DNA of 64,000 nt. Source: Minisyncoccia bacterium. Its GTDB lineage: Bacteria > Patescibacteriota > Minisyncoccia > UBA6257 > JAAZHW01. Shown one piece after another: positions 9,148 through 47,519 of this stretch (position 1 is the first letter of the stretch; each line of letters begins with the position of its first letter). The stretch spans positions 1,339 to 65,338 of the forward strand of contig JBNASH010000036.1 in NCBI GenBank assembly GCA_049720475.1, written 5' to 3'. The position numbers and the translations under genes were made by a program. The notes under the pieces were generated by a model. That model was not told where the DNA came from, did no database searches, and worked only from the letters and a program-made list of their open reading frames with translations.

Positions 9148-9626
9148 AATTGAGTATTAAAACTTATTTCGCGAGTTTTTTCATCTACAATTTTAAATTT
9201 TATCCAAACGGCGTTTTTAGGAATTAATTTTTTGATTTTTTCCGGCCATTCAATAAAAACGAGATTTTTTGGTTCAGAAACAATTTCTTTAAACCCTAAA
9301 TTTTTAATTTCCGAAGGTTTTTCTAAACGATAGCAGTCGATATGATAAAAATTTTTAAAAAAATTTTTATGGTTGATTTTAAAATCTTTGATAATAACGA
9401 AGGTGGGGCTTAAAATTTTCTGTTTGATTTTTAAGGCGTGGGCAGCGCCTTGAACAAAATGTGTTTTACCAGCGCCCAAGTTTCCAGAAAGGGCAAAGAT
9501 GTGCGGTGGTAATAATCTTTTTTCTTTAAGAAGCGTTTTTACTAAAGTAACAGCAATTTTTTGTGTTTGTTTAGGGGAACAACTTTTTATAACGATTTTT
9601 TTCATAATATTCTTATTATAGCACAA
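9144..9626 (-). CDS. tsaE: tRNA threonylcarbamoyladenosine biosynthesis ATPase TsaE (YjeE family)
   Basis: P-loop SGNLGAGKTHFVQG and length about 160 aa typical of TsaE. Confidence 0.75.
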   Translation of the reverse strand: MCYNKNIMKKIVIKSCSPKQTQKIAVTLVKTLLKEKRLLPPHIFALSGNLGAGKTHFVQGAAHALKIKQKILSPTFVIIKDFKINHKNFFKNFYHIDCYRLEKPSEIKNLGFKEIVSEPKNLVFIEWPEKIKKLIPKNAVWIKFKIVDEKTREISFNTQL

Positions 9627-9673
9627 AAATTTTTAACTTGTATTTTCGGAATTTTTTTGTTTAAATATAAACG

Positions 9674-10954
9674 ATGAATGAATTCTTTGAAATTGAAGGT
9701 GGTCAAAAGTTAAAAGGCGAATTAGCGGTGGCGGGCAGCAAAAACGCCGCCTTAGCTATTTTACCCGCTTGTCTTTTAACGGATGAAGTATGCATTATAA
9801 AAAATATTCCGCTTTTAACTGATGTTTTGGTAATGATTGATCTGATGAAAAATTTGGGAGCGGAGATAGAATGGTTAGATGAAAAAGTTTTGAAAATTCA
9901 GGCTAAAAATTTAAATTCTAATGCGGATACAGTTTTAGTTAGAAAAATTCGCGCTTCAATTTTAATTGCTGGTCCAATTTTGGCTCGATTGGGTGAATTA
10001 AAAATTGCCAAGCCGGGCGGATGCCATATTGGGGTGCGTGGTTTGGATGCTCATTTTGAGGGATTCAAAGATCTAGGAATTGAATTGGTTGAAGAAAAAG
10101 TTGATAAAGAGAAATATTATTTAAAGAGGCCAGAAAAATTGCAGCCAACCAATATTTATTTGAATGAATTTAGTGTAACAGCGACGGAAAATTTAATGAT
10201 GCTTTTGGCTTCTATTGATGGAAAAAGTGAAATACATTTGGCAGCAGCTGAGCCGCATGTTCAAGAATTGGGAGAGGTGTTAATAAAAATGGGTGCTGAG
10301 ATTGAAGGTTTGGGTACTCATACGATCAAAATCAGAGGAGCCAAAAAATTAAGAGGAATAGAACACAGTATTGGTCCTGATTATATTGAGGCGGGAACTT
10401 TTTTCAGTTTAGCAGCAGCCACCAAAAGCAATTTGAAAATTTTAAATGTTCCGGTAGAGCATTTAGAAATGGTTTTTAGAAATTTGAAAAAAATAGGCGT
10501 TTCATATAAAATAGAAGACAAATCAGTATTTATCAATAGTGAAGATAGTTCCTTGAAAGCAGCCAAAATCCAAACCTTACCATACCCCGGATTTCCAACT
10601 GATTTACAGGCGCCATTTGCCGCGATGATGACTCAAGCAGCAGGAGAAAGTTTAATTTTTGATACTTTATTTGAGGGCCGATTTAAATATGTGGAAGAAC
10701 TAATACAAATGGGCGCTAAAATTTTTGTTTGCGATCCGCATCGTATTGTTGTCGTCGGACCAACGCCTTTGTACGGAACAAAAATAAAAAGTTTTGATTT
10801 AAGAGCCGGAGCAACTTTAATCATTGCTGCGTTAGCAGCGAAGGGGAAAAGTGAGGTTTATGGTATTGAGCAAGTTGATCGCGGTTATGAAAAAATCGAA
10901 GAAAGATTACAAAATATCGGCGCTTATATTAAAAGAGTCGTTCAGGAAAAATAA
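9674..10954 (+). CDS. murA: UDP-N-acetylglucosamine 1-carboxyvinyltransferase MurA
   Basis: EPSP-synthase fold length, active-site Cys context KPGGCHIGVRGLD. Confidence 0.9.
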   Translation: MNEFFEIEGGQKLKGELAVAGSKNAALAILPACLLTDEVCIIKNIPLLTDVLVMIDLMKNLGAEIEWLDEKVLKIQAKNLNSNADTVLVRKIRASILIAGPILARLGELKIAKPGGCHIGVRGLDAHFEGFKDLGIELVEEKVDKEKYYLKRPEKLQPTNIYLNEFSVTATENLMMLLASIDGKSEIHLAAAEPHVQELGEVLIKMGAEIEGLGTHTIKIRGAKKLRGIEHSIGPDYIEAGTFFSLAAATKSNLKILNVPVEHLEMVFRNLKKIGVSYKIEDKSVFINSEDSSLKAAKIQTLPYPGFPTDLQAPFAAMMTQAAGESLIFDTLFEGRFKYVEELIQMGAKIFVCDPHRIVVVGPTPLYGTKIKSFDLRAGATLIIAALAAKGKSEVYGIEQVDRGYEKIEERLQNIGAYIKRVVQEK

Positions 10955-10965
10955 AATTTTATTTT

Positions 10966-11973
10966 ATGTTTATTAAAAAAATTGGCATCGATTTAGGAAC
11001 AACAAATACTTTGGTTTTTGTACCCAAAAAAGGTATTGTGATTTTTGAGCCAACTATTGTCGCTTATGATTTGCATGATAATAAGATTTTAGCCGTTGGG
11101 AAGGAAGCAAAAGAGATGTTAGGTCGCACGCCCGAAGATATTGGTGCTTATCGTCCTTTAAAAGATGGCGTTATTGCTGATTACAAAACAACAAAGGCGA
11201 TGTTAAAATATTTTGTTTCTAAAGCGTTGGGAGGTTTTAATTTTTTTAAACCAACTTTAATTGTTTCTGGTCCTGCTGGCATTACCTCTACTGAAAGAAG
11301 AGCGGTAATAAATGCAGCTTTAGAAGCGGGCGCCAGAGAGGTTTATGTGGTAAGAGAGCCGATTTTAGCGGCATTAGGTGCTGGTATTCCTATTAATTCT
11401 GCTTCTGGTCATATGATTGTTAATATTGGTGGAGGCACAACAGAAGTTGCTGTTATTTCTTTGGGTGGAATTGTTTCCTGGGCTTCTTTAAGAGTGGCTG
11501 GTAATAGGTTTGATGAAGCGATTGTTAATTATGTAAGAAAAAAATATAATTTAGCGATTGGCGAACAAACAGCTGAAAAAATTAAAATTGAAGCAGGCGC
11601 AGCAATACCCTTAAAAAATAAAATTGAAACTGAGGCGAAAGGTAGAGATTTAACCAGCGGTTTGCCTCGTTCAATTGTTATCAATTCTAATGAAATTGCC
11701 GAGGCAATTACTCCTTATTTAGAGGAGATCGGCGAGGCAATTCGCAATGTTTTTCTAAATACCCCACCTGAATTAGCGGCTGATATTATTGAAAAAGGAA
11801 TTGTTATTTCTGGAGGAAGCGGTTTGTTGCGAAATCTCGATGAGTTTATTTCAAAAATTACCGGTGTTAATGCTTATATTGCTGATGAAGCGCTTTATTG
11901 TGTGGCAAAAGGAACAGGAATTATTTTGGAACATCTTGATATTTATAAACGCGCTTTATTAAGCAAAAAATAA
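10966..11973 (+). CDS. mreB: rod-shape determining actin homolog MreB (paralog 1)
   Basis: IGIDLGTTNTLVFV phosphate-1 motif, NIGGGTTEVAVIS, GGSGLLRNLDEFI. Confidence 0.85.
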   Translation: MFIKKIGIDLGTTNTLVFVPKKGIVIFEPTIVAYDLHDNKILAVGKEAKEMLGRTPEDIGAYRPLKDGVIADYKTTKAMLKYFVSKALGGFNFFKPTLIVSGPAGITSTERRAVINAALEAGAREVYVVREPILAALGAGIPINSASGHMIVNIGGGTTEVAVISLGGIVSWASLRVAGNRFDEAIVNYVRKKYNLAIGEQTAEKIKIEAGAAIPLKNKIETEAKGRDLTSGLPRSIVINSNEIAEAITPYLEEIGEAIRNVFLNTPPELAADIIEKGIVISGGSGLLRNLDEFISKITGVNAYIADEALYCVAKGTGIILEHLDIYKRALLSKK

Positions 11974-11974
11974 A

Positions 11975-12730
11975 ATGAATTTGGAAAAATATTTTAATCA
12001 AATAATCGAAAATAATAAAATCGAAGGCGGCTGGTTGTTTTTGAGTCTTGATGCTGAGAAAAGTTTTCAAAAAACACTGGAATTAGCTCAGAGAATTACC
12101 AACTCCTATTTAATTTATCTAATCGCTGACGAAGGATCATTAGACGAAAAAATAAAGGAAAAATTTCAAATATTTGCACCTGCGATTAAAAGCATTATAG
12201 AAATTCAAAAGCTTTTATATTTAGCCACCGAAGAAAAGAAAGTTTTGATTATCAAAACAGCCGAAGATTTATCGATTGAAGCCCAAAACTCACTTTTAAA
12301 ACTTACCGAAGAGCCACCACTTAAAACGACTATCTTTTTAATTAGTAAAGATGAAAATAATGTTTTGCCAACTCTTTTATCGCGCTTGAGAATAATTAAA
12401 ATTCCGCTTTTACCCAAAGATAAATTTTATCAAAAAAGAATCAACGAAAGTTTAAAAAAAGGATTGGAGCAAAAAAAATTAATGGAGGTTTATTTGGAAG
12501 AATTTTTAAATGAAAATGCAGTTGATTTTATCGAGAATCTAATTGTTTTGTTGCGCGACCAAATGCTTAATAAATTTGATATTAAAGATTATAAACATAC
12601 TGATGTTAAAGGTGAGATTGATGGTAAAATAATAAGAAATTTTGTTAAAGCACTTGAAGGTGTTAAATATGCCAATTTAAATCCTCGTTTACAAATAGAA
12701 AATATATTAATTAGCTTATCCAAAAAATAA
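11975..12730 (+). CDS. holB: DNA polymerase III delta-prime-like clamp-loader subunit
   Basis: LLKLTEEPP...TIFLIS...LPTLLSRLR resembles the delta-prime/gamma SRC-box region; AAA+-like but degenerate. Confidence 0.55.
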   Translation: MNLEKYFNQIIENNKIEGGWLFLSLDAEKSFQKTLELAQRITNSYLIYLIADEGSLDEKIKEKFQIFAPAIKSIIEIQKLLYLATEEKKVLIIKTAEDLSIEAQNSLLKLTEEPPLKTTIFLISKDENNVLPTLLSRLRIIKIPLLPKDKFYQKRINESLKKGLEQKKLMEVYLEEFLNENAVDFIENLIVLLRDQMLNKFDIKDYKHTDVKGEIDGKIIRNFVKALEGVKYANLNPRLQIENILISLSKK

Positions 12731-12779
12731 AAATAAATTATAATTAAAAAACCGCGGTCGAATATAATTTTTTTAAAAA

Positions 12780-13343
12780 ATGATAATCAATCAATTAATA
12801 GAAAAATTTAAAAAAGAAGGCCAAGAGATTATAAATAATTTTAAAGCAGAAATTGCCGGGATTCGATCTAATAGACCTCAGCCAGCTTTGATAGAAAATT
12901 TAAAAGTAGAATGTCCTTCTTATGGTTCTGTTTTGCCTTTAAAGCACATTGCTTCTATTCAAGTAAGTTTGCCAAACAGTTTAATTGTTCAAGTTTGGGA
13001 TAAAAGTAATGTTAATGCCTGCGAAAAAGCTATTCAAGCGGCTAATTTGGGTGTGACAACCGCTATCGAGGGATTTCAAATTAGAGTTATTTTGCCGCCT
13101 TTATCCCAAGAACGTCGCGAACAAATTTTTCAATTGGTAAAAAAGAAAGGAGAAGAAACCAAAATTCATTTAAGAGGAGCGCGAGAGGAAATATTAAAAG
13201 AAATAAAGAATCTTTTTGAGGAGAAAAAAATTACTGAAGATGATAAATATCGCGGGAAGGATGAATTGCAGAAGGTTATAGATGGTTTTAATGAAGAAAT
13301 AGAAAAAATTATCGAAAATAAAAGAAAAGAGTTATACGAATAG
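12780..13343 (+). CDS. frr: ribosome recycling factor
   Basis: Typical RRF length and sequence, IRSNRPQPALIENLKVE...FQIRVILPPLSQERREQ. Confidence 0.9.
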   Translation: MIINQLIEKFKKEGQEIINNFKAEIAGIRSNRPQPALIENLKVECPSYGSVLPLKHIASIQVSLPNSLIVQVWDKSNVNACEKAIQAANLGVTTAIEGFQIRVILPPLSQERREQIFQLVKKKGEETKIHLRGAREEILKEIKNLFEEKKITEDDKYRGKDELQKVIDGFNEEIEKIIENKRKELYE

Positions 13344-41147: not shown

Positions 41148-41220
41148 TTGCGGGGTCGTCTAATGGTAGGACGCCTGGCTCTGGACCAGGTAATCTTGGT
41201 TCGAATCCAAGCCCCGCAGC
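41148..41220 (+). tRNA. tRNA-Gln (anticodon CUG), exact ends uncertain by 1-2 nt
   Basis: D-stem cgtc/gacg, anticodon stem cctgg/ccagg with loop ctCTGga, T-arm cttgg-ttcgaat-ccaag, acceptor gcgggg/ccccgc. Confidence 0.6.
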
Positions 41221-41303: not shown

Positions 41304-41564
41304 TAACCCGTGGATTAAATTTTGGTAAGATGATAAAGAAAATTGGCGATAGGGTAATTTCTACAACCAGATTAGAAAATTTCAGTTTTCTCCCTTGCTC
41401 GAACAGAATAGAAAGGAAAAAGTTTCAGTAAAAGTAATTCTTGCCCCGTTCTCGCTTTTTTCATCTGTTTCAGGGGTCCGCCCCGCCGATTGTATTCTTT
41501 GCTTTCTCAAAAATTTTTGTTATCATTATAAGAGATTAAGAAAGTTTTGTATCTATTACTTTGA

Positions 41565-41583
41565 TTGTAGTAATATACTACAA
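41565..41583 (+). promoter_or_regulatory. perfect 19-bp palindrome TTGTAGTAATATACTACAA overlapping the XRE start codon (candidate autoregulatory operator)
   Basis: Perfect dyad symmetry; overlaps putative -10 (taatat) and ATG at 41583. Confidence 0.45.
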
Positions 41584-41795
41584 TGAAGTTTAACAATAAA
41601 TCAACAATCGCCGAAAACATAAAGAAATATCGCCAGAAAATGGGTATTTCTCAAGATAGGCTTTCAAAATTAGCCGATGTCACCTATAACACGATTATTA
41701 AAATCGAATCGGGAGCAAACAAAAACCCGACTATTGAAACATTGGCAAAAATCGCCAAAGCGTTAGGCGTTGGAGTAGATGATTTAATAAAATAA
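41583..41795 (+). CDS. XRE-family (Cro/C1-type) helix-turn-helix transcriptional regulator
   Basis: 70 aa; MGISQDRLSKLADVTYNTIIKIESG...PTIETLAKIAKALGV typical HTH_3. Confidence 0.8.
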   Translation: MKFNNKSTIAENIKKYRQKMGISQDRLSKLADVTYNTIIKIESGANKNPTIETLAKIAKALGVGVDDLIK

Positions 41796-41817
41796 TAATT
41801 TTAGTTAATAATTTTTT

Positions 41818-42306
41818 ATGAAATTACCAACAAAAATAATTTTAACAAGCGGTATCGGAATGGGGTCAACGAAATTAAATGCATTCGATAATGCTTTATT
41901 AAATGCAGGAATAGGTAACTTTAATTTATTACAGACATCAAGTATTATACCTCCAAAAGCAAAAATTATTTATCTCACAAAAAGCAAGCAGGGGAAATTA
42001 TTACCTTCAATTGGGTCGGTGGTGCCAACAGTTTATTGTTATATCTTTGGAGAAAAAGTCGGAATAAGAATTACAGCTATTTTAGGATTGGGCATTCCTA
42101 AAAACTACAAAGAGCATAACGGGGTTATATTTGAATTTGCCGGAACTAATATTACAAAAGATAAGGCTAAAAAAACTTGTGGAAGAATGATTGAAGAGGC
42201 ATTTAATTCTAGAAACTTAGAAATAGAAAAAATTCAATTTATAGAGGCAGATTGTTTAGTAAAAAAGAAATATACTTGTGTAATCGTTGCTGCGCTATTA
42301 ATATAA
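41818..42306 (+). CDS. pdaD: pyruvoyl-dependent arginine decarboxylase proenzyme homolog (PvlArgDC/PdaD family)
   Basis: [27 protein letters not shown] closely resembles the Methanocaldococcus PdaD self-cleavage region ([27 protein letters not shown]) including the Ser-Ser processing site; 162 aa. Confidence 0.75.
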   Translation: [162 protein letters not shown]

Positions 42307-42319
42307 TTTAAACCAAATT

Positions 42320-43603
42320 ATGATTCTTTTAGTTAGTAAAAAAGATTATAAAAATCTAAATCCCAAGCAAGGGAAACTAATAATAAGTTATATAAAATTT
42401 GCTGTAGAGGAGACGCTTTTTTATTCAAAATTTAAAAATAAATTAGAAAATATCAATTACAGAAATTTTTTTGAATTTCCAATTACTTATGAATACGATT
42501 TGATAAACAATCCTTTCGCTTTTGTTGGTAAAAATAGCCAATTAGTTCAACTTGCATCTTCGGGAGGAACTTATGGAAAAAGAAAATTAATTTTTAGAAC
42601 AAACGAGGATATACAAAAAAGTGTAGAAACAGCGACTGCGATGTTTCTATGTGGAAAGATTAAATCAAAAGACAGAATTGCAATTTTACAACCCTTTGAT
42701 TTATGGAATATAGGACATATAGCTTTGTTAACCTTTAGAAGAATAGGTGCTTTAAGTGTACCCATAGGGCTTTCTATGGACAATGCGAGTATTTTAAATA
42801 TTTTGGCAACAACTAAATGCAATGTTATTTATGGTACGCCCTCCAAAGTAACGACAATAGCAGAGTTAAGTAAGAAAATAGGTCTAACATTAAAGATAGA
42901 TAAGGTATTTTGTGCTGGCGAACCAATTTTACAGAGTCATCGAGAATCTATTAAGAAAATATGGAATGCTGAAATTTATGGTATTTATGGCTCTGAAGAA
43001 ACTGATGGAATAGGAGCGGAATGCGATTCTCATTGTGGTTATCATATATTTGACAAAACCTTATTGATAGAAGTTTTAAATCCCGAAACATTATTACCCG
43101 CGGAAGAGAACAAAGGTGTATTAGTAGTTACAAAATTAGGATATTCTGGCACAATTTTAGTTCGCTATTTATTAGGAGATTTAGTGGAAATAACAAAAAA
43201 TCCTTGTGAGTGTGGGCGTAAAGAAATAAGAATTTTTCCTAGGGGAAGAATAAAAGAGGTTATTTGGCTTTATGATGGTAGAAAAATTTCTTTGCAATCA
43301 ATAGAAAATGCTTTGAATATGATTTTTTGTGAAGTTCCTCAATATCAGATTCTGGTTAAGAATACACTAAAAGGAAGTATTTTAAGATTTAAAATTTTAA
43401 TCAAAAATAATAATCTTTTAAAAAAGAAAAATGATTTTAAAAAGATAATAGCGAAATCTTCTCAAGACATAGAAGAAGGAATAAATAAGCGAGAAGTTAA
43501 ATTATCCATTGAATTATTTAAAGACCCTTCTCAGTTTATTTATACGGAGAGAGGTAAAATTCCAAAAATAATTTATGAAAAACATGAAGAACATAAAAGT
43601 TGA
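42320..43603 (+). CDS. PaaK / coenzyme F390 synthetase-like adenylate-forming ligase
   Basis: About 430 aa; SSGGTYGKRK at the position of the PaaK SSGTTGKP AMP-binding motif; YGSEET core motif region. Confidence 0.5.
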   Translation: MILLVSKKDYKNLNPKQGKLIISYIKFAVEETLFYSKFKNKLENINYRNFFEFPITYEYDLINNPFAFVGKNSQLVQLASSGGTYGKRKLIFRTNEDIQKSVETATAMFLCGKIKSKDRIAILQPFDLWNIGHIALLTFRRIGALSVPIGLSMDNASILNILATTKCNVIYGTPSKVTTIAELSKKIGLTLKIDKVFCAGEPILQSHRESIKKIWNAEIYGIYGSEETDGIGAECDSHCGYHIFDKTLLIEVLNPETLLPAEENKGVLVVTKLGYSGTILVRYLLGDLVEITKNPCECGRKEIRIFPRGRIKEVIWLYDGRKISLQSIENALNMIFCEVPQYQILVKNTLKGSILRFKILIKNNNLLKKKNDFKKIIAKSSQDIEEGINKREVKLSIELFKDPSQFIYTERGKIPKIIYEKHEEHKS

Positions 43604-44912
43604 TAGGGAGTATATAGAGATATACCCTATAAATTGGCGGAATGTAAGTCAGAAAATGGTAGACAAAATATTTTCCAGCCGCTCTTTTGATTTTATTAAA
43701 GAAATCAGCATCTATGTGCATATTCCTTTTTGCCCCACTATTTGTCCCTTTTGTAAATTTAATATTTCAAAATACGAACCTTTAATTTATCAAAAATATC
43801 TCGGTGTATTAAAAAAAGAAATATCCCTATTTAAAAATCATCCAGATTTACGAAACCGAATTGTTACTGCTATCTATTTTGGGGGTGGTACCGGATCTAT
43901 GTTAACTCCCACTGACATTGATGCGATTTTAAATCTAATAAGTAAAATTTTCAAATTAAGTGATAAAACAGAAATTACCGTAGAATGCCATCCAAGCACA
44001 GTTAATGCTAATAAATTAAAAGAATATAAAAAAGCAGGTGTTAATCGTGTGAGTTTGGGGATCCAATCTTTTCAAGATCAAAATTTAAGAAATATTGGGA
44101 GAAACCATTCAGCTGAACAAAATGAGAAACTTTTAAAAGATGCTCTAAAAATAGGATTTAATTGTGTAGCGATGGATTTAATGTATAGACTTCCAAATCA
44201 AGATTTTAAAAATTTAAAATTTGATCTTAATAAAATTAAAAAACTTTCTCCAGATGGAGTTAGTGTTTATAGCTTGGAACCGGAAGCAACTCCTTTAGAG
44301 AGAAAAACTTCAGAGATGCCACCTGAAGAGATTGATAGGGAGATGTTTTATTTTATTGGAGATTTTCTTGAAAATATTGGTTATCGCCGCTTTATGCAAC
44401 CTGATTTTTCAAAACCTGGCAAAGAATGTAAATATGTACTAAATGCTTGGAAAGCGCCACAACAATTAATGATTGGTTTTGGTGCTGGTGCTCATACGCA
44501 TTATTTTGGAAATCATGTATGGGCAAATGTTTATCCTATAAAAAGTTATATTGAGGCTCTAGAGAATGGATATTTTCCAGGAGTTATGGGTATTGAGGTT
44601 CCTCTAAAAGAATTGAAAGCGAAATATATGGTTTTAGGCGTTCGACATCTTTCAGTAGAAAAAGCAAGTTTTGAAAGAATGTTCAAAGAAAAAATTAATG
44701 ATATATATAGTGCAAAAATTAAAGAATTGAAAAAATTAGGATGGATAGTCGAAGAAAATGGTTGTTATAAAATAACCAGAGAGGGATTCTATTATATTGA
44801 TAACATATCAAAGACATTTTATACCAAGGCAAATAAAGGGGAAGGTCAACCTTGGCTTAAAGGTCTTTATAATTATATTCCTAAGAAATTTTACAAACCA
44901 TCAAAATTTTGA
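43575..44912 (+). CDS. HemN/HemW-family radical SAM enzyme (coproporphyrinogen oxidase-like; class C rSAM)
   Basis: YVHIPFCPTICPFCKF (CxxxCxxC in HemN context), GGGTGS, 445 aa with HemN C-terminal domain. Confidence 0.8.
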   Translation: MKNMKNIKVDREYIEIYPINWRNVSQKMVDKIFSSRSFDFIKEISIYVHIPFCPTICPFCKFNISKYEPLIYQKYLGVLKKEISLFKNHPDLRNRIVTAIYFGGGTGSMLTPTDIDAILNLISKIFKLSDKTEITVECHPSTVNANKLKEYKKAGVNRVSLGIQSFQDQNLRNIGRNHSAEQNEKLLKDALKIGFNCVAMDLMYRLPNQDFKNLKFDLNKIKKLSPDGVSVYSLEPEATPLERKTSEMPPEEIDREMFYFIGDFLENIGYRRFMQPDFSKPGKECKYVLNAWKAPQQLMIGFGAGAHTHYFGNHVWANVYPIKSYIEALENGYFPGVMGIEVPLKELKAKYMVLGVRHLSVEKASFERMFKEKINDIYSAKIKELKKLGWIVEENGCYKITREGFYYIDNISKTFYTKANKGEGQPWLKGLYNYIPKKFYKPSKF

Positions 44913-44984
44913 CAAAATTCATAAAATTTGTTAAGATTGTTAAAGAGTGAAAAACTTTTTAACAACTTAAATGGAGGTGAAATC

Positions 44985-45512
44985 ATGGAAAAAGAACAAA
45001 AAATCACAAAAGAAAAAGAGGTAATACTTGAAACTTTTTTAAAAGGGTGGAAAGAAACAAGGCAGCTCACACTGGATTGGATAGATGCGCTTTCATTAGA
45101 GCAATTGAATCAAGAATTGCCACGGCCAGGCCTTAATTCTTTCACAAAGCATATTTACGAAATGGGAGAAATTCAGAAAATATATGCAGCTGTACTTAAA
45201 GGAGAAGAACCAAAGATGGAAAAGGTGACAACCTTGACTTTTGAATCAGAAAAAGTTGTTGCCAAAACAAAAGAAGAATTAAAACAATTTCTTGGCGAAT
45301 GTGATGAAAACTTCTATGAGGCAGTAGGAAAGGTAAAAAATTGGGAAGAAAAAGTTTCGATTTTTGGAGTGGAAGTACCAAAATTTGGTGTTGTGGAACT
45401 GTTGATAAGACACGAAACCCTGCATCATGGACAATTTATCGCCTTCGGTTACATTTTAGGTATTCAATTCCCTCAAAGCTGGATAGATGCATGGGCCCTA
45501 CCCACTAAGTAA
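44985..45512 (+). CDS. DinB/YfiT-like four-helix-bundle protein (DinB_2 superfamily), start moved to ATG 44985 with strong RBS
   Basis: C-terminal HETLHHGQ matches DinB-family H-H-R/G-Q motif; RBS GGAGGTG 6 nt upstream of ATG 44985. Confidence 0.5.
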   Translation: MEKEQKITKEKEVILETFLKGWKETRQLTLDWIDALSLEQLNQELPRPGLNSFTKHIYEMGEIQKIYAAVLKGEEPKMEKVTTLTFESEKVVAKTKEELKQFLGECDENFYEAVGKVKNWEEKVSIFGVEVPKFGVVELLIRHETLHHGQFIAFGYILGIQFPQSWIDAWALPTK

Positions 45513-45574
45513 TTCAACCCAGACCTGGCTATGTCGCTAAACTACCTTTTTTCATAAGAAGGAGGTGAGGTAAG

Positions 45575-46333
45575 ATGGATAAGAAAACGATGTATTGGAA
45601 ACTTGCATGGGATACTTTTCATTTGCAAGTTTTCGACTATAAAGGTGATGTGAACAGAATAAATAACTGGGTTAAAAAAAGAGGTTACAACGTAACGAAC
45701 ATATTGGAAATAGGATGCGGAGCTGGTCGTTATCTCAAATTCTTGAAAAAGTTAGGTTATAAATGTGCGGGAGTAGACAAAGATGCTGATATTTTAGAAT
45801 ATGCAAGGCAAATAGTTTTACAGGAAGATAAGGATATCGAATTAGCAAAAAGAGATATTCTAAAAAGGATCCCATCAGTATTTAAAGGACGATTTGACTT
45901 GGTTCTTGGCAAACATCTTTCGTTGCCATTGGTTGATTTGGAGAAGGTCTTAGATTATGCAAAGAGAGCTTTAAATCCAAAAGGACCTAAACTCTTAGTA
46001 TTTGATTTTATGGTAGCTAATAAAAGTAACCTCGACAAAGAAATTCTCAGTATTGATAGTGCTGTAAAAGACCATCTCTTTTTAGTAAGACTAAATCAAA
46101 TGGAGCTAAGAAAAGAATTAAATGAATACAGATGGGAAGAATTTTACTTCATAGAGGATGCTCGAGAAGGAATTATTTTTACTAAGATCAACACGCGACA
46201 CTTATGGTTTCTTTCTCGTGATGAATTAAACAAATTGTTAGGGGATAAAGGTATAGAAATTGAAAACGAGTTGAGAGAAGATACAGGAATTAATAACTTA
46301 GAGGGGGTGACAATCTATGGGAAATTTAAATAA
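45575..46333 (+). CDS. class I SAM-dependent methyltransferase
   Basis: Motif I ILEIGCGAGRYL, motif post-I GVDKD; strong RBS AAGGAGGTGAGG. Confidence 0.7.
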   Translation: MDKKTMYWKLAWDTFHLQVFDYKGDVNRINNWVKKRGYNVTNILEIGCGAGRYLKFLKKLGYKCAGVDKDADILEYARQIVLQEDKDIELAKRDILKRIPSVFKGRFDLVLGKHLSLPLVDLEKVLDYAKRALNPKGPKLLVFDFMVANKSNLDKEILSIDSAVKDHLFLVRLNQMELRKELNEYRWEEFYFIEDAREGIIFTKINTRHLWFLSRDELNKLLGDKGIEIENELREDTGINNLEGVTIYGKFK

Positions 46334-46919
46334 CAAAATTTCTATTCTTATTGATAAAGAGCTGAAAACACTAGGCGACAAAGAATTTGCAAGGCGTAGA
46401 GATAGATTGATTGGTGAAGGAGTGAGGTCTTATGGAGTGGAAACCCAAGAGATTAGAAAAATTGCCAAGAAATACTTCAAGCAATTTCAAGAAAGAGAAA
46501 CCATAAGAGATTGGTTAGGAACCATCAAAGACTTGCTATCAACAAAAGTATTTGAGAATCAAATGGCTGGGATATTTCTTTTAGGTGCTTTTCTTAAAAG
46601 TGGTGGAAAGGTAAGTATTCCTGAGCTTGAAAGATTGATTATAAAATATCTTGATAATTGGGCAACCTGCGATACGATAAGTAGTGAAGTCGTGGCAAAA
46701 ATTTTAAGTGGATCCCCAAAAGAAATTAAAACTTTGTATGTTTGGGCAAGATCTAGAAATATTTGGTTAAAAAGAATTGCTTTGGTAACTATAGTGAAAC
46801 TCAAAAGTGAGATTGAAAATTGGCAAGAAATTGCTTCCAGGATATTTTCCTTTTCTAAAAAAGCAAAAGAGCCAATCATTAAAAAGGCAGTTCGTTGGTT
46901 AGAAAAAGAACTTTCTTAA
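46317..46919 (+). CDS. AlkD-like HEAT-repeat DNA alkylation repair glycosylase (DNA_alkylation family)
   Basis: About 200 aa helical repeats; NWATCD (Trp-x3-Asp catalytic spacing as in AlkD), later WARSRNIWLKR with conserved Arg/Trp; RBS GAGGGGGTG. Confidence 0.5.
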   Translation: MGNLNNKISILIDKELKTLGDKEFARRRDRLIGEGVRSYGVETQEIRKIAKKYFKQFQERETIRDWLGTIKDLLSTKVFENQMAGIFLLGAFLKSGGKVSIPELERLIIKYLDNWATCDTISSEVVAKILSGSPKEIKTLYVWARSRNIWLKRIALVTIVKLKSEIENWQEIASRIFSFSKKAKEPIIKKAVRWLEKELS

Positions 46920-46922
46920 TCA

Positions 46923-46955
46923 CGGGACGGAAGAACATTCTGTCCCGTTTTTTTT
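46923..46955 (+). terminator. rho-independent terminator
   Basis: cgggacgg-aagaacatt-ctgtcccg stem followed by 8 T. Confidence 0.7.
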
Positions 46956-46959
46956 ATTT

Positions 46960-47200
46960 TTGGATAATAAGTTTAGAATTTCTAAAATCGGCGGCGCGCC
47001 CGCGAAGTGGGCGAGAAGAAAAGCGAGGGTGAGGCGGAAATTTCTTTTTCCCGAACCCCTTTTCCTTCCCGCCCCGCCCGAGCGAATTTTTCAGAAATTA
47101 GCATCGGGATTTTCGCGGAAGAAAGTTCGGATTTTGTTCAAAAGAGACAGCCAACAAAAATCCACCAGAAGGCGGGTTTTTTAAATTCTATTGACAAATT
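46960..47200. other. GC-rich noncoding segment (local GC far above flanks) between terminator and promoter; candidate structured RNA or foreign remnant
   Basis: Runs such as ggcggcgcgcccgcgaagtgggcgag, ccttcccgccccgcccgagcg; hairpin cgccc-gcgaagt-gggcg; only Arg/Lys-rich spurious ORFs; TTGACA -35-like box at about 47190. Confidence 0.3.
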
Positions 47201-47264: not shown

Positions 47265-47519
47265 ATGAGAAAAATTTTTAAAAAAGCGCAACATTTTCTT
47301 CAACTTCTGATCTTATTATTTTGGCCAGCAATTTTGGTGGGATTCCCCCTTCGAATTTTAATGATAAAAAAAGTAATTAATATTTCTGTTCTCGGAGCAG
47401 CAATAATTATTTTTCTGATACAGCTGGCCTGGCTTTTCTTTTACGCCGCCTGCAAGGCAGCGGGCGATGCTGATGAAAAATTAGAAGAAATTTTTTATAA
47501 AAAATTAAATAATTTTTAA
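47265..47519 (+). CDS. small membrane protein (84 aa), unknown function
   Basis: Two hydrophobic helices; strong RBS AAGGAGGTGGGCG 5 nt before ATG. Confidence 0.4.
   Translation: MRKIFKKAQHFLQLLILLFWPAILVGFPLRILMIKKVINISVLGAAIIIFLIQLAWLFFYAACKAAGDADEKLEEIFYKKLNNF

Follow-up and report, generated by a model that had tools for sequence, protein, structure and literature searches.

PaaK-like enzymes such as 6siw and AjiA1 join acyl-adenylates to oxygen or nitrogen nucleophiles without CoA. Class C radical SAM (rSAM) enzymes put the methylene of SAM on sp2 carbons (PMC10114718), and in the yatakemycin and CC-1065 clusters a cyclopropanase made up of a HemN-like rSAM enzyme and a methyltransferase is encoded together with the AlkD homologs YtkR2 and C10R5 (PMC8626424, PMC6050322).

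Here, we analysed a 64,000-nucleotide stretch of DNA from a Minisyncoccia bacterium (the whole stretch is called the window), in which genes for an XRE-family regulator, PdaD, a PaaK-like ligase, an rSAM enzyme, a DinB-family protein, a methyltransferase and an AlkD-family protein form one seven-gene cassette. PdaD, the ligase and the rSAM enzyme, which a previous sequence-only reading had flagged, are part of this larger unit. The cassette is carried on a mobile element, hosted by bacteria with tiny genomes and some archaea, and its predicted product is probably a small molecule, possibly a DNA-damaging one; a predicted DNA-repair gene (AlkD-family) is encoded within the cassette itself. Our preferred reading, with a probability of roughly 45%, is a portable pathway in which an acid would be joined to agmatine or a polyamine and radical chemistry would add a C1 unit, with DNA repair as self-protection.

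Organisation of the cassette

The first four genes were found as the sequence-only reading had described them: on the + strand, 3' of a tRNA-Gln(CTG) gene, tightly packed (intergenic gaps of 22 and 13 nt, with the rSAM start about 20 nt inside the 3' end of the ligase gene) and without SD sites. The family searches upheld all four assignments. The proposed unit of 41565-44912 consists of real genes, but its end at 44912 halves the cassette, as about 2 kb more, with the DinB, methyltransferase and AlkD-like genes and a terminator at about 46950, belong to it. The features are as follows (other loci are given as L numbers):

41149..41220, + strand: tRNA-Gln(CTG), from ARAGORN and Rfam; landmark left of the cassette
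41495..41582, + strand: conserved XRE promoter/5' region, 83-84% identical in DNA to its counterparts in L034, L013 and L039
41583..41795, + strand: XRE-family HTH regulator, 70 aa (PF01381, E 9e-17)
41818..42306, + strand: PdaD, a pyruvoyl-dependent arginine decarboxylase (PF01862, E 5e-37; TIGR00286, 123 bits, cutoff 107)
42320..43603, + strand: PaaK-like adenylate-forming ligase (PF00501, 35.9 bits against 29.9)
43584..44912, + strand: HemN-like (class C type) rSAM enzyme (PF04055, E 3e-21)
44985..45512, + strand: DinB-family metalloprotein (PF05163, E 3e-10)
45575..46333, + strand: class I SAM-dependent methyltransferase (PF13649, PF13847, PF08241)
46317..46919, + strand: AlkD-family HEAT-like-repeat protein (PF08713, E 2e-30)
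46922..46948, + strand: intrinsic-terminator-like hairpin (11 bp) and T-run, from a consensus scan and the sequence; likely end of the transcription unit
46985..47180, no strand assigned: conserved non-coding element, GC-rich and with a long hairpin inside, from blastn and MAFFT

As the rSAM gene starts within the 3' end of the ligase gene, translational coupling of the two is probable; another possible rSAM start is at 43575. For DinB there is a longer ORF from 44928, the form called by NCBI being 175 aa. The start of the AlkD-like gene overlaps the 3' end of the methyltransferase gene.

The ligase and the radical SAM enzyme

The ligase had been called PaaK/F390-synthetase-like, which agrees with its match to PF00501 above cutoff, while all PaaK, F390-synthetase and DVU_1553 models matched below their cutoffs only. 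The best NCBIfam matches were to the DVU_1553 family (135 bits, cutoff 300) and PaaK (79 bits, cutoff 646). Identity as a PaaK ortholog was rejected on these scores, which are far under every PaaK cutoff. Its solved relatives are PaaK, the PaaK-like ligase 6siw and AjiA1 (1e-19 to 1e-22), and it shares the adenylate-forming fold family with true PaaK and with the PaaK-like natural-product ligases (6siw-type, AjiA1, BagE/FevW). A further likeness is an invariant Lys near the C-terminus (K413, in an R-G-K-x-P motif), R411-G412-K413 being invariant. In contrast, the ligase is far under all equivalog cutoffs for PaaK, F390-synthetase and BagE and carries a group of invariant Cys and His residues (C235, H238, H242, C296 and C298). 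The homolog search gave only 76 clusters, and judged by its sequence the ligase is a member of a distinct small family of PaaK-like adenylate-forming enzymes.

The rSAM enzyme, with the cluster motif HIPFCPTICPFC, was confirmed as a HemN-family protein by PF04055 together with a sub-threshold HemN_C match. The public name for its near-identical and related proteins at NCBI is HemW, and it does pass the cutoff of the HemW model TIGR00539 (233.8 bits against 205.4) and shares with HemW a CxxxCxxCxF motif without the fourth cysteine of HemN. This favours an explanation in which the genes are chance neighbours with housekeeping roles, namely PdaD for polyamine supply, PaaK for use of aromatic acids, HemW as a heme chaperone and generic repair. 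However, the rSAM enzyme lacks the heme-binding motif HNxxYW and has [KR]YV.NAW.APQ in its place, carries about 50-80 additional N-terminal residues and belongs to a clade that is monophyletic with respect to E. coli HemW, ChuW and HemN, with the common signature W-x-[AS]-P-Q. In every case it comes coupled with a ligase, as part of a cassette that is accessory and mobile, and not in a housekeeping setting. Its closest solved structures are NocN (1e-31), a class C methylase, and HemN (1e-29).

The other members of the rSAM clade are found in biosynthetic clusters, namely on the C. botulinum plasmid pCLJ, on a Lachnospiraceae contig and at an NRPS locus. All five core proteins, the methyltransferase and the AlkD-like protein among them, have homologs on plasmid pCLJ, with identities to the window of 37% for the rSAM enzyme (E 2e-97), 29% for the ligase (1e-48) and 31% for DinB (6e-24). 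Their neighbours are a LuxR regulator, a 46-aa GWQSA-repeat peptide, a SPASM-type rSAM enzyme, a creatininase/MftE-like protein, a MATE exporter and a NosL-like rSAM enzyme, which scores 241 bits with the 3-methyl-2-indolic acid synthase model (under the family cutoff of 400) against 122 with ThiH. The Lachnospiraceae contig (L069) repeats the pCLJ gene set, and at the NRPS locus (L068) an rSAM enzyme 44% identical to that of the window stands by an NRPS, P450s and an MFS exporter.

Synteny and a likely amine link

Synteny was counted over 14 ligase lineages, 13 of which could be assessed for ligase-rSAM adjacency. The two genes are neighbours in 12 of these 13, from both domains of life, and therefore their linkage is beyond chance. 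The methyltransferase is present in 11/14 lineages, DinB in 10/14 and the AlkD-family (PF08713) protein in 9/14, so that the recurrent set is the ligase, the rSAM enzyme and these three; the sequence-only reading had missed the methyltransferase, DinB and the AlkD-family protein. The triad of PdaD, ligase and rSAM enzyme that it proposed does not hold as a conserved unit, because PdaD is missing from 9/14 lineages, including the close relatives L002, L033 and L037. For all five proteins the identity to the window drops in the same order (L034 > L002 > L041 > L006), which indicates that the unit was inherited together. The gene order was not found as a known annotated pathway, and a place for the cassette genes outside core metabolism is supported. 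Recurrence of the gene set at 30-50% identity over CPR bacteria, archaea, Desulfobacteraceae and Clostridia speaks against chance neighbours. In Methanosuratincola the ligase occurs alone, which counts against the pathway.

The Ser-Ser self-processing site noted previously in PdaD aligns to Ser52/Ser53 of M. jannaschii PdaD, and Asp35, Asn47 and Glu109 are also kept. The window PdaD is therefore, like that of the canonical archaeal polyamine operon (PdaD-agmatinase-SpeE-BpsA; present in L060, an outgroup at 41% identity), a true family member with intact processing and catalytic residues. Unlike that operon, the cassette encodes neither an agmatinase nor an aminopropyltransferase, which makes agmatine the likely final amine. 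PdaD stands beside the core in four lineages (the window clade, L020, L053 and L056), at differing positions, and in a fifth SpeD and SpeE are found upstream of the core in its place (L011, L012 and L049-51). This recurrence and replacement make an amine link likely, and an amine-using small-molecule pathway, as first suggested, is the best current reading. PdaD is predicted to supply agmatine as a facultative member of the cassette. It could also be a hitch-hiker, as most lineages lack it and members of its clade are also found by themselves among housekeeping genes (L058), a point in favour of the housekeeping explanation.

DinB, the methyltransferase and the AlkD-family protein

The His/Glu metal site of DinB is intact, with H75, H162, E163, H166 and H167 kept in at least 18 of 20 cassette DinBs. 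The methyltransferase has a canonical ExGxGxG SAM motif and is of the small-molecule type (TehB/UbiE/CpaM-like), its NCBIfam matches being sub-threshold only. The AlkD-like protein matches B. cereus AlkD at 1e-8, and the catalytic triad Trp/Asp/Trp, as defined in PMC8626424, aligns to identical residues (Trp109, Asp113 and Trp187). It is predicted to be a DNA glycosylase for alkylated purines. The W-x3-D/E motif is kept across cassette variants; the HEAT-type variants have Glu where the catalytic Asp stands, which counts against the preferred reading. As AlkD is a general repair enzyme in non-producers too (PMC8626424), the gene is no proof of genotoxin synthesis.

DinB and AlkD, like VOC/glyoxalase and PIG-L, are of families best known from detoxification and repair. 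The cassette could be an island for damage tolerance without a product of its own, in which AlkD repairs alkylated DNA while the ligase, the rSAM enzyme, DinB and the methyltransferase render harmless an electrophile or aromatic acid from the environment or the host, for example by conjugation with agmatine. An internal deletion in L059, which spares PdaD and AlkD and removes the ligase through the methyltransferase, and the lack of an acid-precursor gene and an exporter in the CPR cassette would fit this. However, the tight coupling of a class C rSAM enzyme with an adenylating ligase is a biosynthetic signature, the same rSAM subfamily clusters with a precursor-like peptide, a NosL-like rSAM enzyme, NRPS and efflux pumps, and dedicated amine-forming genes recur. 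We consider such an island unlikely.

The mobile backbone

In the best explanation, the region 41583-46950 represents about 5.4 kb of cargo on a small integrative element; in relatives the backbone consists of XRE and a large serine recombinase, and the window has lost the latter. A large serine recombinase adjoins the cassette in L034, L024, L002 and L056, with tRNA genes in L034 and L024; in L034 a tRNA-Gln at the position equivalent to that of the window is followed by the recombinase. Between the window and L034 the cassette proteins are 69-87% identical, against 59% for the flanking FtsE and 37% for FtsX. Strong SD sites (GGAGGTGA for DinB) precede the DinB, methyltransferase and AlkD-like genes, although SD sites are rare in this host (3/7 cassette genes vs 2/52 host genes, p = 0.01). 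Therefore, the view of the cassette as long-resident is unsupported. Decayed copies were also found, with a transposon insertion in L004/L005 and the L059 deletion.

The flanking recombinases, the far better conservation of the cassette than of its flanks, the decayed copies and the low PaaK scores all argue against chance housekeeping neighbours, in spite of a cassette GC content equal to that of the host; that explanation is very improbable and already largely refuted by synteny.

XRE had been read as the regulator of the cassette but is probably part of the recombinase-XRE backbone and outside the pathway. Its cluster at 90% identity has 194 members across Patescibacteria, and in L002 and L059 an XRE-family gene is upstream of a different cargo. 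A palindrome, GTAGTA-ATA-TACTAC, directly 5' of the XRE ATG is a possible operator. In relatives, an inverted second copy of the 46985-47180 element lies between the recombinase and XRE, so that the cargo is bracketed by two copies; for a left copy in the window itself the match was not significant. The element matched no Rfam family and its RNA fold had a z of -1.8.

The recombinase-XRE elements lie amid restriction-modification, SMODS and patatin genes (L002, L059). This raises the possibility of nucleic-acid hypermodification as anti-restriction or defence cargo, in which the AlkD-family protein would bring the enzymes to DNA, the rSAM enzyme would put methylene-SAH on an sp2 carbon of a base (e.g. 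pyrimidine C5) and agmatine or a polyamine would displace SAH to give an aminoalkyl base. In its favour, even the most divergent forms keep the DNA-binding PF08713 protein as part of the core, genes resembling nucleoside 2-deoxyribosyltransferase turn up repeatedly in the vicinity (L006, pCLJ and L069), and NosN-type methylene transfer followed by nucleophile capture is established chemistry (PMC10114718). However, the methyltransferase belongs to no DNA methyltransferase family, the scheme leaves the adenylating ligase without a role, viral contigs gave no match, and relatives lie in obvious small-molecule clusters. Among the five core enzymes PADLOC matched the methyltransferase only (mad2, E 7e-13), which looks like a match through the generic SAM-binding domain. 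Class C rSAM enzymes are not known to act on DNA, and hypermodification appears slightly less likely still than detoxification.

Proposed pathway

For the portable pathway, the data show the gene families with their intact catalytic residues, a synteny that recurs, a mobile setting and the occurrence of the rSAM subfamily in biosynthetic clusters. All substrates, the formation of an amide, the product and its reactivity with DNA, and any role in protection are what we infer. PdaD would decarboxylate arginine to agmatine, while in other lineages SpeD/SpeE would give an aminopropylated amine or the host would provide the amine. The ligase would adenylate a carboxylic acid, with aryl or heteroaryl acids as the likeliest substrates, and hand the acyl group to CoA or directly to the amine, giving an amide. 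The rSAM enzyme could then put a SAM-derived methylene on an sp2 carbon of the acyl moiety, and the methyltransferase could methylate the product or help to resolve the SAM adduct. The product would probably be electrophilic and DNA-directed; the AlkD-family glycosylase may remove purine adducts, cationic or bulky, from the DNA of the producer itself, and DinB (VOC and PIG-L instead in one lineage) may quench or process the compound. Against the pathway, the CPR cassette encodes no enzyme for the carboxylic-acid substrate and no NosL-like gene, PKS, NRPS or exporter. Of the earlier interpretation, the family calls, the non-core status and the amine pathway stand, but the triad as a unit, the long residence and the XRE role do not.

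Comparison with known natural-product systems

With the indolic-acid module of nosiheptide and nocathiacin (NosL, NosI and NosN/NocN), the locus shares an adenylating ligase and a HemN-like rSAM enzyme, which in that module methylenates an aromatic sp2 carbon. Among solved structures NocN is nearest to the window rSAM enzyme, and the pCLJ and Lachnospiraceae relatives carry a NosL-like rSAM enzyme. In contrast, the window has no NosL-like gene, thiopeptide precursor or carrier protein, and NosI is probably from another branch of adenylating enzymes than the PaaK-like ligase.

With the clusters for the spirocyclopropylcyclohexadienones yatakemycin and CC-1065, it shares a HemN-like class C rSAM enzyme, a SAM methyltransferase (YtkT/C10P and C10Q) and an AlkD-family protein that, like YtkR2/C10R5, keeps the Trp/Asp/Trp triad; the rSAM enzyme is likened to YtkT/C10P by description. 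The common logic would be a C1-installing radical enzyme paired with self-protection by base excision. The window has none of the benzodipyrrole-building genes, and its methyltransferase has the canonical SAM motif instead of the DxGxNxG of C10Q. It adds a PaaK-like ligase for acid activation, an amine-forming decarboxylase and a DinB protein and, whereas the yatakemycin and CC-1065 clusters are from Streptomyces, its mobile unit spans only 5.4 kb and occurs in CPR bacteria and archaea.

Gene content and extent of the cassette

The host is a Minisyncoccia (CPR/Patescibacteria) MAG of about 32% GC. The sequence-only reading had described four co-directional genes after a tRNA-Gln gene, encoding an XRE regulator, a PdaD homolog with a Ser-Ser processing site, a PaaK-like ligase and a radical SAM enzyme (rSAM) of HemN-like type. 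All four were found on the plus strand, Pfam and NCBIfam profile searches supported each family, the PdaD processing site is kept, and that description of the sequence was judged correct. The gene set was nevertheless incomplete, as three further genes on the same strand had been missed, coding for a DinB-family protein, a methyltransferase and an AlkD-like protein.

Features of the cassette and its flanks (window positions; the rSAM gene lies between the ligase and DinB genes)
41149-41220, plus strand, tRNA-Gln, precedes the cassette
41583-41795, plus strand, XRE regulator
41818-42306, plus strand, PdaD homolog (Pfam and NCBIfam)
42320-43603, plus strand, PaaK-like ligase (Pfam and NCBIfam)
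44960-44984, strong SD site of the DinB gene
44985-45512, plus strand, DinB-family protein (PF05163)
45550-45574, strong SD site of the methyltransferase gene
45575-46333, plus strand, class I SAM methyltransferase
46292-46316, strong SD site of the AlkD-like gene
46317-46919, plus strand, PF08713 'DNA alkylation repair' (AlkD-like) protein
46922-46948, 11-bp hairpin and then a T-run, directly after the AlkD-like gene
46985-47180, GC-rich non-coding element (about 170-250 bp), directly right of the AlkD-like gene, conserved in relatives

As the genes overlap or are only 13-72 nt apart, they appear to form one transcription unit of about 5.4 kb, reaching from XRE to the AlkD-like gene. These gaps hold no small ORF, which rules out a RiPP precursor within the window cassette.

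Conservation across lineages

Exact-protein look-ups, together with scans for patterns in 185,579 species genomes and in JGI metagenomes, gave 57 loci with relatives of the ligase. The cassette genes were mapped at these loci by phmmer, and clustering of the ligases at 65% identity resulted in 14 lineages. The ligase family is rare: 5.8 billion proteins yielded 76 clusters, and the 185,579 species genomes 11 loci.

Genes found beside the ligase, by lineage
rSAM: 12 of 13 assessable lineages
Methyltransferase: 11 lineages
DinB: 10 lineages (VOC and PIG-L in its place in one)
PF08713 protein, AlkD-type or HEAT-type: 9 lineages
PdaD: 4 lineages
SpeD and SpeE: 1 lineage

The sole assessable lineage without the rSAM is Methanosuratincola/Nitrososphaerota, in which the ligase is alone. 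Identity to the window proteins declines in the same order (L034, L002, L041, L006, each a locus with a related cassette) for all five core proteins, namely the ligase, rSAM, methyltransferase, DinB and PF08713 protein, indicating that the set is inherited as a unit. The hosts include CPR bacteria, Archaeoglobaceae, Desulfobacteraceae and 'Gammaproteobacteria' MAGs, and the GC content of the loci ranges from 0.33 to 0.57. That the genes are simply unrelated housekeeping neighbours is therefore highly improbable, since their synteny crosses domains.

The radical SAM enzyme

The window rSAM has a PF04055 domain (76.7 bits) with the CxxxCxxC cluster motif. It also scores above the HemW family cutoff (TIGR00539, 233.8 bits against 205.4), and the public subfamily members P0157, P0163, P0165, P0203 and P0241 are all labelled 'radical SAM family heme chaperone HemW' by the NCBI pipeline. 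The heme-binding motif of HemW is HNxxYW (PMC10114718, PMC11834973). At this site E. coli HemW reads HNLNYW, whereas the window enzyme reads YVLNAW; HN..YW was absent from all 16 subfamily members checked, and the cassette enzymes carry a conserved [KR]YV.NAW.APQ in its place. The form W-x-[AS]-P-Q is common to the wider subfamily, including Clostridium and NRPS-linked members. The cysteine motif is at residue 50 in the window enzyme and at 50-84 across the subfamily, compared with 16 in HemW.

The genuine E. coli HemW and HemN and O157 ChuW genes were used as references, to each of which the cassette rSAMs are 23-35% identical. In a neighbour-joining (NJ) tree the cassette rSAMs were monophyletic and apart from E. 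coli HemW. HemW was therefore rejected despite the TIGR00539 score, because of the missing HNxxYW, the longer N-terminus and the separate NJ clade. Motif, tree and context together indicate that the HemW naming of this subfamily is a systematic misannotation, which masks a separate, biosynthesis-linked branch of HemN-like enzymes. ChuW/HutW was also rejected (TIGR04107, 195.2 bits against 400; 24% identity to O157 ChuW), as was the coproporphyrinogen dehydrogenase HemN (TIGR00538, 165.8 bits against 324.95), the window motif CPTICPFCKF lacking the fourth cysteine of CxxxCxxCxC.

The nearest solved structure is NocN (E 1e-31), with HemN slightly behind. NocN is a class C rSAM methylase, and in this class a SAM methylene radical adds to an sp2 carbon, with a methylated, cyclopropane or methylene-bridged product as possible outcomes (PMC10114718). 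The features of class C methylases (NosN/NocN, TbtI, YtkT/C10P) are all found in the window enzyme: a HemN-like fold, CxxxCxxC and a C-terminal HemN_C region, the last just under its cutoff in the window (22.9 bits against 24) and above it in relatives. By analogy, a two-SAM C1 transfer to an sp2 carbon is predicted.

The ligase and its amine partner

The window ligase passes only the generic AMP-binding model (PF00501, 35.9 bits against 29.9) and falls far under every PaaK, F390 and BagE cutoff in NCBIfam. Phenylacetate-CoA ligase PaaK could be ruled out (TIGR02155, 79.3 bits against 646.3; NF041878, 95.5 against 700). Among 14 diverse homologs, R411-G412-K413-x-P415 is invariant, and we take the conserved lysine of this R-G-K-x-P motif near the C-terminus to be the catalytic position of ANL enzymes. 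The protein accordingly belongs to the adenylate-forming (ANL) superfamily. C235, H238, H242, C296 and C298 are also invariant across the 14 homologs, suggesting a putative structural metal site. A lead from NCBIfam to DVU_1553 and DVU_1556 was dropped, as both matches were sub-threshold and no publication was found in the searchable literature.

Ligases about 40% identical to that of the window occur without a nearby rSAM or other cassette genes at nine loci of Methanosuratincola and relatives (L016-L019, L023, L043-L045 and L047). The ligase family would therefore have a second, cassette-independent role in these archaea. By ORF appearance, the solitary ligase adjoins an alpha/beta hydrolase-sized ORF and transporter-like ORFs.

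The window PdaD, a pyruvoyl-dependent arginine decarboxylase, exceeds its family cutoffs (PF01862, 127.6 bits against 22.7; TIGR00286, an equivalog model, 123 against 106.95). When aligned to M. jannaschii PdaD (1n2m), the Ser52/Ser53 self-cleavage site, Asn47, Asp35 and Glu109 are all identical, bearing out the original identification. Conversion of arginine to agmatine is predicted for it. In three close relatives (L002, L033, L037), XRE is followed directly by the ligase without PdaD, and at L058 a PdaD 62% identical to that of the window is alone amid cell-division and translation genes. PdaD is next to more distant ligases in other arrangements: PdaD-ligase at L020 (ligase 48% identical to the window's), methyltransferase-PdaD-ligase at L053 (32%) and PdaD after a HEAT protein at L056 (30%). 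In a fifth lineage, AdoMet decarboxylase (SpeD) and spermidine synthase (SpeE) are directly upstream of the core. Because linkage to PdaD or SpeD and SpeE repeats in differing arrangements, the gene contexts argue that an amine, agmatine or a polyamine, would serve as a substrate. The amine link proposed for the PdaD, ligase and rSAM triad survives in this form, although PdaD itself lies outside the invariant core. The repeated linkage to an arginine decarboxylase or to SpeD/SpeE also suggests a new use of polyamines as building blocks.

A detoxification or repair island that makes no product is an unlikely explanation, given the tight coupling of the ligase and rSAM and the presence of dedicated amine genes.

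The AlkD-like, DinB and methyltransferase proteins

The AlkD-like protein scores 106.8 bits against a PF08713 cutoff of 21. The catalytic triad of AlkD is Trp109, Asp113 and Trp187 (PMC8626424). In the alignment the window protein has NWATCD and VRW where B. cereus AlkD has WWDSVD and IGW, so that all three residues are identical, and W-x3-D and the C-terminal Trp are kept in all AlkD-type cassette copies and in the copy on pCLJ, a plasmid of Clostridium botulinum strain Ba4 657. Excision of cationic or bulky alkylpurines is predicted from these residues. The HEAT-type variants are also above the PF08713 cutoff (46.9 bits at L056, 28.4 bits at L011) and have W-x3-E; a deoxyhypusine-hydroxylase-like identity was ruled out for them, as they are without His-Glu motifs.

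The DinB-family protein (PF05163, 40.8 bits against 23) has the four-helix-bundle domain with its His metal triad. Of 20 cassette copies, at least 18 keep the His/Glu metal site, with H75, H162 and H166/H167 conserved. The idea that YtkR3 of yatakemycin is DinB-like was dropped, since the yatakemycin literature searched made no mention of it.

The methyltransferase is of the small-molecule type. This speaks against a DNA/RNA hypermodification system, which would make nucleic acid the substrate of the cassette and, with exporters also borne by relatives, is quite unlikely.

Relatives in secondary-metabolite clusters

When plasmids were searched by tblastn, the ligase turned up on seven of C. 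botulinum. On pCLJ (locus L064), a cluster of about 14 kb holds homologs of all five core proteins.

Homologs of the core proteins on pCLJ (identity to the window protein, E-value)
rSAM: 37%, 2e-97
Ligase: 29%, 1e-48
DinB: 31%, 6e-24
Methyltransferase: 25%, 1e-8
AlkD-like: 23%, 7e-7

The cluster also encodes a LuxR regulator, a DHODH-like flavoprotein, a deoxyribosyltransferase-like protein, a MATE exporter, a creatininase/MftE-like protein and an rSAM best matching the mycofactocin maturase model (sub-threshold). The best model for a further rSAM is 3-methyl-2-indolic acid synthase (NosL), at 241.5 bits (cutoff 400) compared with 122 for ThiH. A 46-aa ORF at 5454-5594 of L064, MWNRLMYYINANRASGWQSVIGWQSATGWQSATGWQSAAGWQSAVK, contains five GWQSA repeats and looks like a candidate repeat-core RiPP precursor; it adjoins an rSAM and the creatininase/MftE-like protein, and the searchable literature holds no mention of such a peptide.

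The pCLJ gene set is present again on a Lachnospiraceae contig (L069), and at L068 two P450s, an NRPS and an MFS exporter are neighbours of an rSAM 44% identical to that of the window. These contexts show that the rSAM subfamily lives in secondary-metabolite clusters. Neither the gene set nor the pCLJ cluster was found described in the searchable literature. Other plasmid matches, in Monoglobus, Bacillus ZJS3 and Azospirillum, lacked the cassette and had the usual surroundings of PaaK.

In the nosiheptide pathway the indolic acid comes from a NosL-type enzyme, and a ligase also takes part. The HemN-like NosN adds a C1 unit (PMC10114718), and the same three kinds of enzyme are present in the pCLJ cluster.

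Mobility of the cassette

The cassette had been taken as probably long-resident in its host. This is contradicted by the recombinases beside its relatives, the flank identities, the bracketing of the cargo, the SD sites and the decayed copies.

A large serine recombinase (Resolvase, Recombinase and Zn-ribbon) adjoins the cargo at L034, L024, L002, L028 and L056. At L034 the order is FtsE-FtsX-tRNA-Gln, the recombinase on the opposite strand, XRE through AlkD and then Obg; at L024 a tRNA cluster precedes the same arrangement, L002 has two recombinase-XRE-cargo modules in tandem, one of them with this cassette, and at L056 the recombinase is at the opposite end of the cassette. The FtsEX-tRNA-Gln site is common to L034 and the window, and the cassette proteins of the two are 69-87% identical, compared with 59% for FtsE and 37% for FtsX. 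No recombinase or remnant was found in the window, including the 360-bp gap between tRNA-Gln and XRE, where the only match was tRNA-Gln itself, which overlaps the recombinase 3' end in L034.

Other cargo occurs on the same backbone. Positions 1-6030 of L002 combine XRE and the serine recombinase with an N6/N4 DNA methyltransferase, unknown proteins and a SMODS protein, and positions 4129-6902 of L059 have the XRE backbone with an N6/N4 DNA methyltransferase and unknown proteins. This suggests that CPR genomes have a family of small, modular elements that carry cargo. At L028, inverted copies of tRNA-Ser(CGA) and the serine recombinase (1034-2681 and 9377-11024) flank the cassette on both sides, which is either real, as an inverted duplication or an invertible segment, or an artefact of assembly.

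The GC-rich element contains a long internal hairpin (GCGAGGG..GGCGG / CCGCCCCGCCCGAGCG). At L034 it is at 12612-12858, with an inverted copy at 6939-7104; such an inverted copy is located between the recombinase and XRE in L034, L013, L039 and L028, so that the cargo from XRE to AlkD is bracketed. The hairpin loop of L039 has the opposite orientation to that at the other loci. The element may be a recombination or cassette-exchange site. A structured RNA was rejected (no Rfam family, fold z = -1.8). A decayed left-hand copy in the window was dropped, its score being equalled by 10 of 340 control windows, and a 22-nt inverted repeat (41534/46900) was taken as chance, as similar AT-rich matches are abundant nearby.

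An SD core was found in 2 of 52 host genes, compared with GGAGGTGA-type sites at all three of the DinB, methyltransferase and AlkD-like genes (Fisher p = 0.0096). SD sites are absent from XRE, PdaD, ligase and rSAM, as had been observed previously. In SD-using hosts, every cassette gene has one. This pattern suggests that the cassette was acquired from a lineage that uses SD sites and has been ameliorated unevenly. Just two 'host' genes have a strong SD site, and one of them (GGAGGTG) encodes an 84-aa predicted membrane protein (47265-47519), which directly follows the GC-rich element on its right; the other loci gave no homolog of it, and it may be part of the island.

Decay was seen at L004/L005, where a DDE_3 transposase splits the rSAM gene (L004 2821-5279), and at L059 (8220-8510), where a clean 3.7-kb deletion from about codon 102 of the ligase to the start of the AlkD-like gene leaves XRE, PdaD and AlkD.

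A phage origin was rejected, as IMG/VR viral contigs gave no relative and GenBank phages gave weak ligase-domain matches only. Known anti-phage defence was likewise rejected, as PdaD, ligase, rSAM, DinB and the AlkD-like protein match no PADLOC-DB model; the matches obtained were a generic XRE, and the methyltransferase to mad2 (E 7e-13) through a generic domain.

Proposed pathway and comparison with known systems

Our preferred reading, to which we give a probability of roughly 0.45, is that the cassette encodes an acid-plus-amine pathway with C1 addition by the rSAM and self-protection by DNA repair. The protein families, conserved residues, linkage and genomic context it builds on were observed directly. 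The ligase would adenylate an acid, probably aryl or heteroaryl, which would be joined to agmatine or a polyamine, or routed via a CoA thioester; the class C rSAM would add a C1 unit and the methyltransferase would finish the product. The AlkD-family glycosylase and DinB could then shield the producer against a product that reacts with DNA. What we infer are the substrates, the product, its reactivity with DNA and the protective roles. The main weaknesses are the lack of an evident acid source or exporter in the CPR version, the facultative PdaD and the role of AlkD homologs in general repair.

A more specific version is doubtful: that a recombinase-borne cassette of 5-7 genes, moving among CPR bacteria, archaea and other anaerobes, makes a minimal, agmatine- or polyamine-tailed, DNA-alkylating aryl acid amide with an rSAM-installed warhead and an AlkD-type glycosylase as antidote. 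If true, it would be a portable chemical weapon or chemical anti-phage defence, and the smallest known genotoxin-plus-base-excision-immunity cluster, with larger cultured relatives on C. botulinum toxin plasmids.

CPR/Patescibacteria have minimal genomes and, to our knowledge, very little secondary metabolism that has been recognised. A pathway that is conserved, moves laterally and brings a DNA-repair gene of its own would mean that these bacteria put resources into chemical interactions, be it with hosts, competitors or phages. The related gene clusters, borne by neurotoxin plasmids of C. botulinum and present in a sequence cluster with the cultured Lachnospiraceae bacterium MD335, make the chemistry open to experiment. 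If the product damages DNA, an AlkD-family gene beside a ligase-rSAM pair would be a simple marker for genotoxin mining outside actinomycetes.

The yatakemycin and CC-1065 clusters contain the AlkD-family proteins YtkR2 and C10R5, and in both the cyclopropane warhead is made by a HemN-like rSAM together with a methyltransferase (PMC8626424, PMC6050322). The self-protection proposed for AlkD and DinB parallels YtkR2 and C10R5 of these SCPCHD pathways, and an rSAM and a methyltransferase are present in the window cassette. There are differences: the window methyltransferase has a canonical ExGxGxG, compared with DxGxNxG in the C10Q type, which is described with a catalytic His138, and no gene for the benzodipyrrole subunits of SCPCHD is among the seven. 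The cassette is best filed with class C rSAM clusters having AlkD-type self-protection, among which it is unusual in its small size, amine-forming gene, PaaK-like ligase, carriage by a serine recombinase, and CPR and archaeal hosts.
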